A stretch of DNA of 64,000 bases from Lama guanicoe. Taxonomy: Eukaryota. Shown here in pieces: positions 653 through 47,405 of this stretch. Location: the NCBI GenBank assembly GCA_013239625.1, contig MU053823.1, forward strand, positions 751,565 to 815,564. The letters are read 5' to 3'. How positions within the stretch are numbered: the first letter of the stretch is position 1; each line of letters begins with the position of its first letter. Made by a program: the position numbers and the translations under genes. Under the pieces are notes generated by a model. The model was not told the DNA's origin and made no database searches. It saw only the letters and a program-made list of their open reading frames with translations.

Positions 653-2185
653 GTCTAGCAGTTGGGTGGAGCATGAAGTGTGATGTACTGAGAGATCATG
701 GTCAAAAATGAGACTGGATTGCTAAACAGGGACTTAGGTTAGTAGGGTTTTGTACATAACACTAAAACAGTTTCTTAGAAAAATGAGGAACCAAAGCCCG
801 GACGTGGCGAAACAAGGTTTGCCACAGAAAACCTGTGGCAACAGTGTGGAGGATTGGGGGGGGTGGGTAAGTCAGTGTTAGGCAACAGCCATTGACATCT
901 AAGTGAGATATAATTGTGTGATAATAAGGAGTGAGAGTGGTGATGGGGAACATTTCGCAGATGTTAGACCTGAGGAGAATTTACCTACATATGGCAAGTT
1001 CATAACATGATAGATATTTAATTTCAACTGAGAAGATATGATTTAGATATTTCTGAAACAGACCATGGAGATCATTGAGTCTGCATCTTCTATTGCTGTG
1101 TCCCTAGTTAGAGGCACTTGGGATCATCTGAAGCATAATCCATAGCTGCCATGAGAGGAGGAGCTTGCGGGGAGAGCGGACCCATCACCAGAAGGGAATC
1201 CTGCCAGTTCACTTTGTTGACTCTGGACAGAGTTCAAAACAACTCCATACGTTACCAGGGAGTCTCAGGCTGCCATTCAAGTACTCCCTGTCAATGCCTG
1301 ACTCTGTGAATACATGTCCGTACAATACTCTCTGATCTCATGTTCTCAGTTGCTGTTTATTCTACGACGAGCCACCTTTATTCATAAGGAACCCCTTCTC
1401 TTGCTCTTTGAAAATCCATATGATAATTCCCTGGTCCCCAAATATATTCATACCCCACTGATCACAGCTGAGACTGGATTTACAGTTCAAGTCTTCCACC
1501 AGTGTAAGAATCTTCAATTGTTTTATGAAGAATTTGCTTCTCAAATTTTAATCACCTGCACATGTATGATGTCAGCCTGCTGAAACTAAGATAGAAGTTG
1601 CTAATACTGAAATAAAGTGTCAAGGGAAATATAGTTCAGTTACAGAAATGTATTTGCTACTTTTGTTTTCTTCCTTTCCCTGTTCTCAATGCGTATCTGA
1701 AACTCAGTCATTTCCTCTGAAGCTCTAAGAACATACTATTTCCAGTTTTTCTAATTCATTTATCTTCTCTACTTATACTAAGTATTTGACATTTGCTTTC
1801 TTTGAAACACCTGCATTGAGGTTCACTTAAGTATTAAGGAAACTTTAGAAGAGATTATTTTAAGAACATTGTAAGTTGTAGCAGCTACTATACGAATACA
1901 TTAAAGAAGCTATAATGTTTGATCAACTGTTATTTCCCACTGTGTCCCTCCCTCTAAAATTCTCAGTATGTAAATTCTCTTAACTTTAATCCTAAGTTAT
2001 GAATCAAGTAAATGGAAAATAATAGTTCTTAAAATTTCATTATGATGGGATATCAAAACTGGAGGGTGTAGTGCCCTCAGATTCCTTACTTAGACATATT
2101 CTGAAAACTGCTTCTTTTTTTTTTCTTTAGGAAAATAAAATGATTACCCATATGAGAAAAAAGCAGGCTTGTCACACTTCCAAAT

Positions 2186-2191
2186 TTTATT
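2186..2191 (-). terminator. Candidate polyadenylation signal of the connexin-like gene
   Basis: tttatt on + = AATAAA on -, about 146 nt after the stop codon. Confidence 0.55.
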
Positions 2192-2337
2192 TTTCTAAGA
2201 TATAGGTTATCTATGTCGCCATGTTCTGGGAACATAACATAAGGTTAAAATGTGTACTGCTTCAATACAAGACCACTCTAGGCTTCTATGGCCTCCATTC
2301 CTTATCTCATAACCAATGATGATCATCAGGGCTACTA

Positions 2338-3072
2338 TCAGAATTTTATGCAGACTCTGTATGTCTTAGACAGAGTTACATATGCATTAATGGTGTACAT
2401 GAAGAACATAAGACAGAAAGTCATGATAACCACTGAGACTGTAGCCAGAAGTATGATGGACATTATCTTTTCCTGCGTCCCCATAACCACGCATGTATAA
2501 GGTCCGTGACACAGGTGGGTACTGCACCAAATGGATTTTTTAATCAGTGGTAGGTGACAGTGAATAAGAATGACTAAGAAGATCACCTGTATAGACAACT
2601 GTACGAAAAAGTAGACAAGATACATTGCCAGCAGATGTTTTTCCTTGGATAAGTAAAAAATCTCATCTTCTTTTATTTTAACATGGTCTGCCTTTTTGTC
2701 TGTGTCACTGGAGTTCTCTTGGAAAGGTTGCTTCTTTAGCATCTTGATTTGCTTATGCACACTCTGCGAAACAAAAAACTCCATCACAAAGAAGACGGAG
2801 GAGAAGGCAAAGCCAACCAAGTACCAAACGCCTAGGACAGGCTTAGTGAAGTGGCTCTCATAGCACTCGGCTACACAGGATTTAGAGATATTCCCATGGC
2901 ACTGGAAGTCTTTCGCCAGATCAAGCCAAGTCATTTGCACTATGTACACAACTGAAATATAAACGAAGCTAACGCTGAACCACAGAGGTCGCCCTATGTA
3001 GAAGTCTGTGGGGTCTTTGCTCAGCAGCAGTATGGTGGGTGTCACAGCAGCAAATACTTTATTGTTAGACAT
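2338..3072 (-). CDS. Divergent connexin-like (gap junction family) protein, 244 aa, single coding exon
   Basis: Uninterrupted ORF from ATG 3072 (aagATGt) to TGA; four hydrophobic segments; loop 1 FQC58-x7-C66-x3-C70YE; loop 2 C183-x4-C188-x5-C194VVMGTQEK, compare connexin C....CP..VDCF.SRPTEK; IGR..W before TM1 and W.D...F.C after it. The ORF-track start at 3255 is a GTG upstream of a splice acceptor. Confidence 0.85.
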   Translation of the reverse strand: MSNNKVFAAVTPTILLLSKDPTDFYIGRPLWFSVSFVYISVVYIVQMTWLDLAKDFQCHGNISKSCVAECYESHFTKPVLGVWYLVGFAFSSVFFVMEFFVSQSVHKQIKMLKKQPFQENSSDTDKKADHVKIKEDEIFYLSKEKHLLAMYLVYFFVQLSIQVIFLVILIHCHLPLIKKSIWCSTHLCHGPYTCVVMGTQEKIMSIILLATVSVVIMTFCLMFFMYTINAYVTLSKTYRVCIKF

Positions 3073-3080
3073 CTTGAAAT

Positions 3081-3100
3081 CTAGGAAGACAAAAGCAAGG
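3081..3100 (-). other. Splice acceptor of the connexin-like coding exon
   Basis: Minus strand reads ccttgcttttgtcttcctag|atttcaagATG: pyrimidine tract plus AG 8 nt before the ATG, the usual connexin gene layout. Confidence 0.7.
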
Positions 3101-4689
3101 TAGCATCGGGAGGAAAGAATGGACAATATTTTATCCCATTTACACAGTCTCTGCTGTTCTTCTAACAGGTGCTTGCTGGGAAGGAACTCAGTCGTCTTAG
3201 GTGAGAAGGGAACTCCGAAGAAATTTAGGAGACTGTCCAAAAGAAATACACCCACTTAATACTATTTGTTACTCTTTCATTTACTAACTCCTTCTTCTAA
3301 TTTTTTGTTATCAGTCTCTCTCCCTCACCCTATTTGGCTCCCCAACCGCTTCCCCCAGTTTATCGAGCCCTCTGCATAGTTCTTTATCCTGTTTGCTCTC
3401 ATCACAAACTCTTGTGTCATTTGCTTTGTATTATGATCTATATACCAACCTGTGTAAATCAGCCCCCTCCAGCCAACAGTACAGTTCCAACTGTCATAGA
3501 ACTCCCACAGGAATGGGGATATGAGTGCTTAAAGGTAAGTCTTCACCACTTTTCCCTGAGATGTATCTGTTTGAGATGGGTTAACTGAACTGACGAGTGT
3601 CATTTTAGGCCCTTCTTGAAGCCAGCTTTTCCAAAGCCCATCATCGGTTTCAAAACCTGTTTCTTAAAAAAAAAAAAATTAATTAAAAAAACAAAAACCT
3701 GTTTCTGATTAATCAGTCAAGACGGATGGATGAGTATATAATTGTCTTCTATTGGGAGAACAGCTTAAATCTCTTATTTCCATCACATTCTCCTGCTAAT
3801 TTGAAATTTTCACTGATTCACAGCTATTTTGAGCATCAAACACAGCTGTGTGTTTAGAAAAATGAATGAGGCAGTTCTTGCTTCTAATTACAGATCTGAT
3901 GGTGTGAAGAGTACTTATTAAAATAAATTTTTTATGACCTCTGTCATTTCCGTAATTCACTTTCCCTCCTATGAATTGCAATGACATTGTCAGAACGTCT
4001 TATTATTACACTGCTCTGACAGTCAGCATTTGCTCCAGCCTTTCCTACCAAGATGGCCGAGACTTTTGGTGACCTGCATCATAGTTCAACCTCTTCCTTT
4101 ATTCTATCCTGTTCTCCCACAGCCCTGCCCTGCTGCTGCCTTTCAAAAGTATTAATCTCTAAGAAATATTTTGTACCCCCAACTCTGTCTCAACATCTGC
4201 TTCTGGGAAAGACAACCATAAACACTCCTCTTCAGATCTTTGGAATCTGAGAGACAAGCCACACAGACAGAAAGTTGCCCCCTTCACCCTTGGGATCACA
4301 GTTACTGGAAAGCCAAGCCTCTAGAATACATTATGCTTAATCTTTGCCTTGGAGCGCTCTGAAAATACCCTCTCATTTAACACAGAGAAGTGGCAGACTT
4401 GCATCAACTTTCTCTATGAAGATTCCAACAGAGTCTGAAGAGGGTTTTGTTTGTTTGTAAAAGGAGAGTCACAGGCACACACAAGAAGGGTTGATTCATG
4501 TATTTTTGTCAACTATGTTACAAAATATTGGTTGTGTTTCTTTTTTTATTATTCTTATTTTTTACTGAAGTAAAATATGAATGAGAGGATATGATGGCTT
4601 TATATTAAGTTTAGATAAAGTTATGTCAAAGCTGATAATTAAAAACTAAAAACAAACAAACAAACAAAAAACCCCCTAAAATCACAGTC

Positions 4690-13317: not shown

Positions 13318-13827
13318 TTTTTTTTTTTTTTAACATTTTTTATTGATTTATAATCATTTTACAATGTTACAATGTNNNNNNNNNNNNNNNNNNNNNNNNN
13401 NNNNNNNNNNNNNNNNNNNNNNNNNNNNNNNNNNNNNNNNNNNNNNNNNNNNNNNNNNNNNNNNNNNNNNNNNNNNNNNNNNNNNNNNNNNNNNNNNNNN
13501 NNNNNNNNNNNNNNNNNNNNNNNNNNNNNNNNNNNNNNNNNNNNNNNNNNNNNNNNNNNNNNNNNNNNNNNNNNNNNNNNNNNNNNNNNNNNNNNNNNNN
13601 NNNNNNNNNNNNNNNNNNNNNNNNNNNNNNNNNNNNNNNNNNNNNNNNNNNNNNNNNNNNNNNNNNNNNNNNNNNNNNNNNNNNNNNNNNNNNNNNNNNN
13701 NNNNNNNNNNNNNNNNNNNNNNNNNNNNNNNNNNNNNNNNNNNNGAACTCATATGGTATTTTTCTTTCTCTTTCTGGCTTACTTCACTTAGAATGACATT
13801 CTCCAGGAGCATCCATGTGGCTGCAAA
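13318..13827 (-). mobile_element. Young 5'-truncated L1 insertion spanning the assembly gap
   Basis: PolyT start, L1 3' sequence on both sides of the Ns, perfect 13-bp TSD tgcccctttattc at 13305-13317 and 13828-13840. Confidence 0.85.
13376..13744. other. Assembly gap (369 N)
   Basis: Run of n characters. Confidence 1.

Positions 13828-25399: not shown

Positions 25400-47405
<22,006 letters not shown>

Follow-up and report, generated by a model that had tools for sequence, protein, structure and literature searches.

The window analysed here is a stretch of 64,000 nucleotides (64 kb) from Lama guanicoe (GenBank assembly GCA_013239625.1, contig MU053823.1, positions 751,565 to 815,564 of the forward strand). 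Near its start, at 2338..3072 on the minus strand, lies what is very likely a real, conserved connexin gene of the zeta type. Its coding sequence ran from ATG to TGA in a single coding exon of 244 unbroken codons plus the stop, and it was followed in the window by exons that we take to be those of CD163. A sequence-only reading of the window had described the same unbroken 244-amino-acid frame as an intact, highly divergent connexin-like gene and had suggested that it represented a functional, possibly uncatalogued branch of the family. This open reading frame (ORF) was the longest ATG-initiated ORF in the window. When the window was shuffled 200 times, with composition kept in 1-kb blocks, an ORF of at least 244 amino acids appeared in 1/200 shuffles, and the longest ORF averaged 132 amino acids. 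A chance ORF was ruled out by this rarity together with the conservation of the frame across mammalian orders. The predicted protein had a mass of 28.3 kDa and an isoelectric point of 8.8.

Four hydrophobic segments were found in the protein (about residues 30-50, 78-103, 146-181 and 201-234), and they agreed with the helices of an AlphaFold model (23-49, 79-117, 145-178 and 199-243). The four transmembrane (TM) segments listed in the sequence-only reading were thus recovered by two routes. Its charged cytoplasmic loop and short tail were also present, the loop spanning residues 105-146 with 10 K/R and 8 D/E and the tail extending about 10-18 residues beyond TM4. The motifs CHGNISKSC, PVLGVW and MGTQEK, which it had taken to be eroded connexin signatures, were all found as described. 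Each extracellular loop carried three cysteines, C58-x7-C66-x3-C70 in the first loop (E1; 2863..2901, minus strand) and C183-x4-C188-x5-C194 in the second (E2; 2491..2526, minus strand), and both triplets were invariant in 23/23 mammalian orthologues. The cysteine count and the canonical C-x4-C-x5-C pattern of E2 therefore stood, but the C-x6-C-x3-C pattern that had been implied for E1 did not. That pattern was the one found in E1 of the six canonical connexins from the same genome for which motifs were printed (19 scanned). The x7 spacing is best read as a trait of the entire mammalian zeta group and not as a disruption.

The flanks of the ORF were compatible with a simple gene structure. A putative 3′ splice site, consisting of a polypyrimidine tract and an AG (3082-3081), was read at 3081..3110 on the minus strand. 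The 5′ flank reads ...TTGTCTTCCTAG|ATTTCAAG ATG, so that the AG ends 8 nt ahead of the start codon, as previously proposed. The start codon context, which had been called a good Kozak sequence, was so only in part, with the favourable A at -3 and a T at +4. A candidate polyadenylation signal, AATAAA, was confirmed 146 nt past the stop codon (2191..2186, minus strand). The putative acceptor before the ATG implies a non-coding upstream exon; that exon would be spliced on as an untranslated leader, and a single exon would encode the whole protein. For dog, tiger and Rousettus, RefSeq lists several isoforms whose N-termini are extended in alternative ways, which fits the presence of upstream exons.

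When compared with the Pfam Connexin model (PF00029), whose curated cut-off is 31.3 bits, the protein scored 57.3 bits (E 2.5e-15), and the match took in positions 19-224 of the 225 in the profile. Pannexins, which have two cysteines per loop, belong to an unrelated family, and a pannexin identity was ruled out since the Pfam scan at E<=10 returned no innexin or pannexin match and, besides Connexin, only a sub-threshold match to DUF997. All nine sequence matches in the PDB (9/9) were to connexins (Cx43 and Cx32), with a best E of 3.7e-5. An AlphaFold2 model built from a 56-sequence alignment reached a pLDDT of 78 and a pTM of 0.70, and low confidence was limited to the N-terminal 23 residues and the cytoplasmic loop. 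Foldseek detected 98 matches in the PDB at E<=0.001, and among the matches listed 40/40 were connexins (Cx32, Cx26, Cx50, Cx46 and Cx43), with target-normalised TM-scores of 0.68-0.79. Profile and fold therefore both assign the ORF product to the connexin family, in keeping with the sequence-only reading. Cx26 (GJB2) and Cx32 (GJB1) were the top structural matches. The protein shares with them the four-helix fold and the three cysteines per loop, and with beta connexins also the single coding exon, the short tail, G-[KR]-x-W at the start of TM1 and E-K after E2. It differs from Cx26 and Cx32 in its low identity (about 15-20%) and in an E1 that is longer by one residue. The protein would take up this four-helix fold, with E1 and E2 joined by three disulfides.

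A homologue search at E<=1e-10 gave only mammalian sequences; an exhaustive profile search and profiles built from fish sequences reached other vertebrates. In the exhaustive search, scores were graded from monotremes (288 and 244 bits) through sturgeon (160), cichlid (112) and coelacanth (77) to caecilian (58), with ordinary connexins scoring at most 51 bits. The profile of fish, coelacanth and caecilian sequences retrieved 185 proteins, and at least 15 of the 120 listed bear the name 'gjz1' or 'gap junction protein zeta 1' in NCBI or UniProt. A maximum-likelihood (ML) tree was computed from 60 rows and 270 columns under LG+C20+F+G4, with 41 zeta sequences and 19 canonical connexins from the same genome. 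The canonical set comprised alpha, beta, gamma and delta connexins and held no full-length GJE1. Canonical camelid gene names (GJA1, GJB2 and so on) were assigned from length, N-termini and clustering, which leaves the split itself unaffected. In this tree the 41 zeta rows were separated from the 19 canonical connexins with support of 100/100, and two quick trees gave the same split.

Given that split, we consider it extremely improbable that the gene is merely an orthologue of a named mammalian connexin, whether GJB6-like, GJB2-like or GJE1. Database names do point that way, since 'gap junction beta-6 protein-like' is the name given to the dog model and 'gap junction beta-2 protein-like' the one given to that of Suncus. 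However, the same genome holds intact GJB2-like and GJB6-like genes along with 17 other canonical genes, all on the far side of the 100/100 branch, which rules out a GJB-type orthologue; the window gene is an orthologue of none of the GJA-GJD genes of this genome. GJE1 (Cx23) and the window protein are both small divergent connexins, but GJE1 has two cysteines in E2 and several exons, whereas the window protein has three in each loop and is encoded by one exon. A separate GJE1-like last exon with two E2 cysteines (L026) was found on another contig. It was most similar to canonical connexins, and 0/16 of its BLAST rows at E<=1e-3 were zeta sequences. GJE1 was rejected on these grounds, and the distinction from GJE1 that had been drawn before was upheld.

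Scanned with the Pfam model, the 2.05-Gb assembly yielded 26 matches, consisting of about 20 canonical connexins, a GJA1-like pseudogene, the GJE1-like last exon, the window gene and one further divergent locus, L024. This locus is a second intact zeta gene (G000:C2396:600915-601544, ORF 1447-2247, plus strand) that encodes 267 amino acids and matches Pfam Connexin with 58.4 bits. Its protein shared 65% identity with one platypus protein and 41% with sturgeon gjz1; the window protein was 32% identical to the latter. The L024 paralogue (platypus LOC114807831, cat LOC102899890) belongs to a mammalian sister clade, is about 40% identical to the window protein and has the same loops. It differs from the window gene in its shorter branch, its N-terminus, which resembles that of fish gjz1, and its neighbourhood, where exons with an Ion_trans match, presumably CACNA1C-like, are found about 46 kb away in place of CD163. 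One-to-one orthology with fish gjz1 fails, as there are two mammalian co-orthologues and L024 is the nearer to fish. On the trees and identities available, the window gene is best described as the faster-evolving of the two.

Mammalian zeta sequences formed a clade with support of 85/94. Within it, the CD163-adjacent type clustered with one monotreme pair (85/98), and the L024 type (95/93) included the other monotreme pair, a woodrat sequence and unnamed sequences. The CD163-adjacent type was thus present in monotremes too, as in the exhaustive profile search. Forcing the four monotreme proteins into one clade, a group that was chosen after the tree had been seen, lowered the log-likelihood by 41.6 (p-AU 0.0022). 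The duplication therefore predates the monotreme-therian split; the sequence set contains no bird or reptile that would date it further. Catshark, electric ray, spotted gar, coelacanth and caecilian proteins and one unnamed sequence formed a further zeta lineage, with support of 98/100. It seems to be a third old lineage without a name of its own. The proteins concerned (P0048, P0047, P0055, P0063, P0067 and P0086) are entered in databases as 'gap junction beta-5' or 'uncharacterized'.

Two side observations were made in these sets. RefSeq 'isoform X2/X3' models of the L024 type (P0035-P0037 and P0111-P0115, from cat, dog, cheetah and vicuna) are only 166-252 amino acids long, and P0035-P0037 align to the 267-amino-acid camelid ORF over merely 146-169 residues. 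This suggests either splicing within the coding exon or mis-prediction. The GJA1-like sequence at G000:C5404:217409-218046 (L021/L023) contains an in-frame TGA, has only 100 amino acids from start to stop and is probably a processed Cx43 pseudogene.

The branch proved not to be wholly uncatalogued. The gene falls in the zeta subfamily, whose zebrafish member gjz1/Cx26.3 (ENSDARG00000086255) was named by Lukowicz-Bedford et al. 2022 (PMC9073686) and described, in the portion of that paper available, as "conserved in mammals". Mammalian zeta loci also exist in databases, as 'uncharacterized LOC' entries or as mis-named 'GJB6-like' models. The same Ensembl gene was treated by Mikalsen et al. 2021 (PMC7914757), in the part of the text available, as perhaps 'another subfamily' and was excluded from their analysis. 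With gjz1 of fish and amphibians the window protein shares, besides its clade, a similar length (223-267 amino acids), three cysteines per loop, a sequon in E1, a short tail and an N-terminus without the canonical M-[DG]-W start. It differs from fish gjz1 in its E1 motif, which is C-H-G-N-I-S where gjz1 has C-N-x-T/S.

Orthologues of the CD163-adjacent type were widespread in mammals. The exact window protein was absent from the protein collection searched; a word-indexed search of it returned 28 relatives, 14 of them in rows with mammal names. The best match was an 'uncharacterized protein' of Camelus ferus (98% identity). The others were 44-73% identical and came from dog, wolverine, leopard, four bats, hedgehog, mole, mouse lemur and rodents (squirrel, pocket gopher, deer mouse and kangaroo rat). 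Cluster members extended this range to canids, mustelids, more than 13 felids, bats (horseshoe bat), sciurids (marmots) and Peromyscus. Intact orthologues were therefore present in carnivores, bats, eulipotyphlans, rodents, a lemur, camelids and monotremes, and the frame was open in every order sampled. Orthologous loci were also sought in metagenome contigs, using the 23-sequence mammalian alignment and a JGI fragment (P0027), and none was confirmed. In the same alignment 37 columns were invariant and were concentrated in the helices and loops. Besides the six loop cysteines they included G-R-x-x-W at the start of TM1, W83 and E201-K202 after the second loop. The cytoplasmic loop was free to vary. 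In the geomyoid orthologues P0022 (Thomomys) and P0024 (Dipodomys) it contains an insert of at least 50 residues rich in Glu, Asp and Lys, with helices and loops kept.

This conservation bears on whether the locus could be a decaying or non-functional camelid relic, its frame open by chance or through recently relaxed constraint. Such a relic would account for the fast branch and the differences from Camelus ferus. It would also accommodate the unproven expression and the composition of the 14 named mammalian rows, among which there was no human, mouse, rat, cow, pig or horse protein, although the genomes of these species were not searched. In the available portion of PMC9073686, Table 1 likewise gives '-' for gjz1 in the human column. 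A frame of this length was, however, seldom reached by shuffled sequence and is intact in two camelid sequences as well as in many other orders; the invariant columns fall in helices and loops, all six cysteines are kept throughout, and the five amino-acid differences between the two camelids are all conservative (A/G, S/T, F/L, Q/K and M/V). We therefore consider a relic very unlikely. Judged by conservation alone, the window gene appears to be functional and selectively maintained, and the divergent but intact gene of the sequence-only reading was to that extent confirmed. As for transcription, four RNA-labelled runs contained 0.28-0.38 of the 144 words sampled from window positions 2100-3400, and two of these were reproductive-system libraries. 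These matches are a weak hint of transcription, though RNA libraries can hold genomic DNA.

Connexin hemichannels are hexamers, and two of them dock through E1 and E2 to form a junction. A three-copy model of the window protein scored 0.36, with 0.00 for the best control. The runs shared at least 46% of contacts, partner pLDDT was at least 64, and the modelled interface placed TM1/E1/TM2 of one copy against TM1/E2/TM4 of the next. The mark used for such models was reached by 21/30 solved one-chain pairs and by 0/23 single chains (17/29 and 0/30 in eukaryotes). As connexin hexamers have already been solved, the model may reflect memory and demonstrates likeness, not binding. It is nevertheless likely that the protein forms a channel-forming oligomer. 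The copies would assemble into a ring, of six subunits if solved connexins are a guide, and so make a large-pore channel.

Whether such channels would pair is a separate matter, on which the residues of the docking face are informative. In Cx26, docking hydrogen bonds are made by N54 (to the L56 backbone), between Q57 and Q57, by K168 and D179, and by the carbonyls of N176 and T177 (PMC5414816). Alignment of the window protein to GJB2 from the same genome gave the replacements N54 to H59, Q57 to S63, K168 to W182, N176 to G190, T177 to P191 and D179 to T193, and the replaced positions include one that is absolutely conserved across human connexins. R75 and R184 of GJB2, the inter-protomer arginines, were both replaced by glycine. 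The extra residue of E1 creates a predicted N-glycosylation sequon, N61-I62-S63 (2884..2892, minus strand), which aligns to T55-L56-Q57 of GJB2 and so lies on the face that Cx26 uses for docking. Within or next to the cysteine loop of E1, a sequon occurred in 20/25 placental orthologues, in 113/115 fish and amphibian gjz1 proteins and in 6/6 members of the third old zeta lineage, whereas the canonical connexins from this genome had none in either E1 or E2 (0/19). Among L024-type sequences it was found in two of the three with a findable motif, and three more had no recognisable motif. Camelid L024 has lost its E1 sequon (CHGSIT).

With all Cx26 docking side chains replaced and a conserved sequon in E1, the most likely product would be an unpaired channel. 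N-glycosylation prevents junction formation by pannexins, according to the accessible portion of PMC8769644, and by this analogy zeta connexins may act mainly unpaired. A second precedent for a non-junctional connexin is Cx23, which is cited, in the title of a reference in PMC7914757, as not forming gap junctions yet enhancing ATP release. The protein would then sit in the plasma membrane as an unpaired 'hemichannel' passing ions and small metabolites in or out, rather than as part of a cell-to-cell gap junction. We put forward this non-junctional mode tentatively, as a close call that leans slightly to the doubtful side.

The competing view of the docking face is that this zeta connexin makes true gap junctions, probably homotypic ones, by way of a distinct docking surface, with the sequon unused or compatible with docking. 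The connexin fold, both cysteine triplets and the canonical E2 spacing are all retained, as this view would have it, and compensatory docking contacts are considered possible in other connexins (Beyer & Berthoud). The sequon is also missing from 5/25 placental orthologues and from 2/2 monotreme orthologues, from which it follows that glycosylation is not essential throughout the CD163-adjacent paralogue. Set against these points are the loss of N54, Q57, K168 and D179 alike and the near-universal presence of the docking-face sequon in fish and amphibian gjz1. Homotypic junctions are on this evidence unlikely, though less so than a relic.

Taken as a whole, we think it probable on balance that the window gene is a zeta connexin, a fast-evolving CD163-adjacent co-orthologue of fish gjz1, whose product most likely acts as an unpaired membrane channel. 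Several observations weigh against this combined view. Bootstraps at the mammalian nodes were moderate (85-86), and several rows had long branches. The lineage is a fast one, with a path from the mammalian zeta node to the window protein of about 1.34 substitutions per site, compared with about 0.5 for L024. Camelus ferus differs from the window protein at 5/244 residues, and the dog orthologue is only 70% identical to it. The sequon, as stated, is absent from some placental and from both monotreme orthologues, and the altered docking surface could yet support homotypic docking.

A broader reading, which is possible but which we advance with considerable reserve, is that zeta connexins are ancient gnathostome N-glycosylated large-pore channels of non-junctional type, a connexin counterpart of the pannexins. 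They would comprise at least two old lineages reaching back to sharks, together with a duplication of gjz1 before the monotremes, of which both copies were kept in many orders; the CD163-adjacent copy would be variable between lineages and possibly expressed in reproductive tissue. If this were true, the presence of zeta copies outside the human and mouse lists would explain why they were omitted from the field's '21 connexins'.

The neighbouring genes place the window gene more precisely. The plus strand carries nine exons with scavenger receptor cysteine-rich (SRCR) domains at 27.7-44.6 kb. Their stop-to-stop ORFs begin at 27712, 30647, 32589, 33451, 40355, 40798, 41609, 43079 and 44108 (span 27712-44602), and two of the nine were scanned with Pfam, both being SRCR. 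Nine SRCR domains are the architecture that we take to be that of CD163, so that the adjacency to CD163 given in the sequence-only reading was supported with a gene name that is based on the domain count. With the connexin on the minus strand and the SRCR exons on the plus strand, the two genes are head-to-head. The first exon and promoter of the CD163-like gene were not located in the window. A run of 369 N at 13370-13750 separates the two genes and is a possible assembly gap.

Beyond the connexin gene, in the direction away from CD163, the same contig contained three features at G000:C1746:665469-705627 (L031, L034 and L035). These were a forkhead exon on the plus strand (Forkhead domain confirmed by the tool), a single-exon ORF of about 500 amino acids for a rhodopsin-type G-protein-coupled receptor on the minus strand (7tm_1 confirmed by the tool) and a NECAP1-like exon on the plus strand, recognised by eye. 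They are presumably FOXJ2, C3AR1 and NECAP1, genes of human 12p13.31. In the human order, as we assume it, APOBEC1 through SLC2A3 lie between CD163 and FOXJ2, unlike the order FOXJ2-C3AR1-NECAP1-connexin-CD163 found here. The difference suggests a rearrangement in one lineage or a difference in scaffolding.

In the searchable literature, mammalian zeta genes were represented by a single sentence of the zebrafish paper (PMC9073686), which, in the portion available, mentions neither two copies nor CD163. The two mammalian copies and their dating before the monotremes were undescribed in the literature searched, although the supplementary Ensembl tree of PMC9073686, which lies outside the portion available, may show the duplication. 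Likewise undescribed there were the linkage to CD163, the third ancient lineage and the rebuilt, sequon-bearing docking face. What is new here is thus the pair of mammalian zeta genes, their duplication before the monotremes, the fast copy beside CD163 and the replacement of its docking residues together with the sequon.

Connexin biology has been framed on the 20-21 genes of mouse and human, and many other mammals keep two more intact ones, among them carnivores, bats, eulipotyphlans, several rodents, a lemur, camelids and monotremes. Neither zeta copy figures in the human or mouse connexin lists consulted. Expression studies and knock-outs in veterinary and model species such as dog, cat or bats that are built on the human catalogue would miss the zeta genes, which matters for comparative physiology. 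In annotation, the labels 'GJB6-like', 'GJB3' and 'GJA4' on zeta proteins are wrong and need replacing. The rebuilt docking surface and its sequon yield a directly testable prediction, that of a naturally occurring connexin whose channels do not pair into junctions, and zeta connexins would in this way inform how docking competence evolved.

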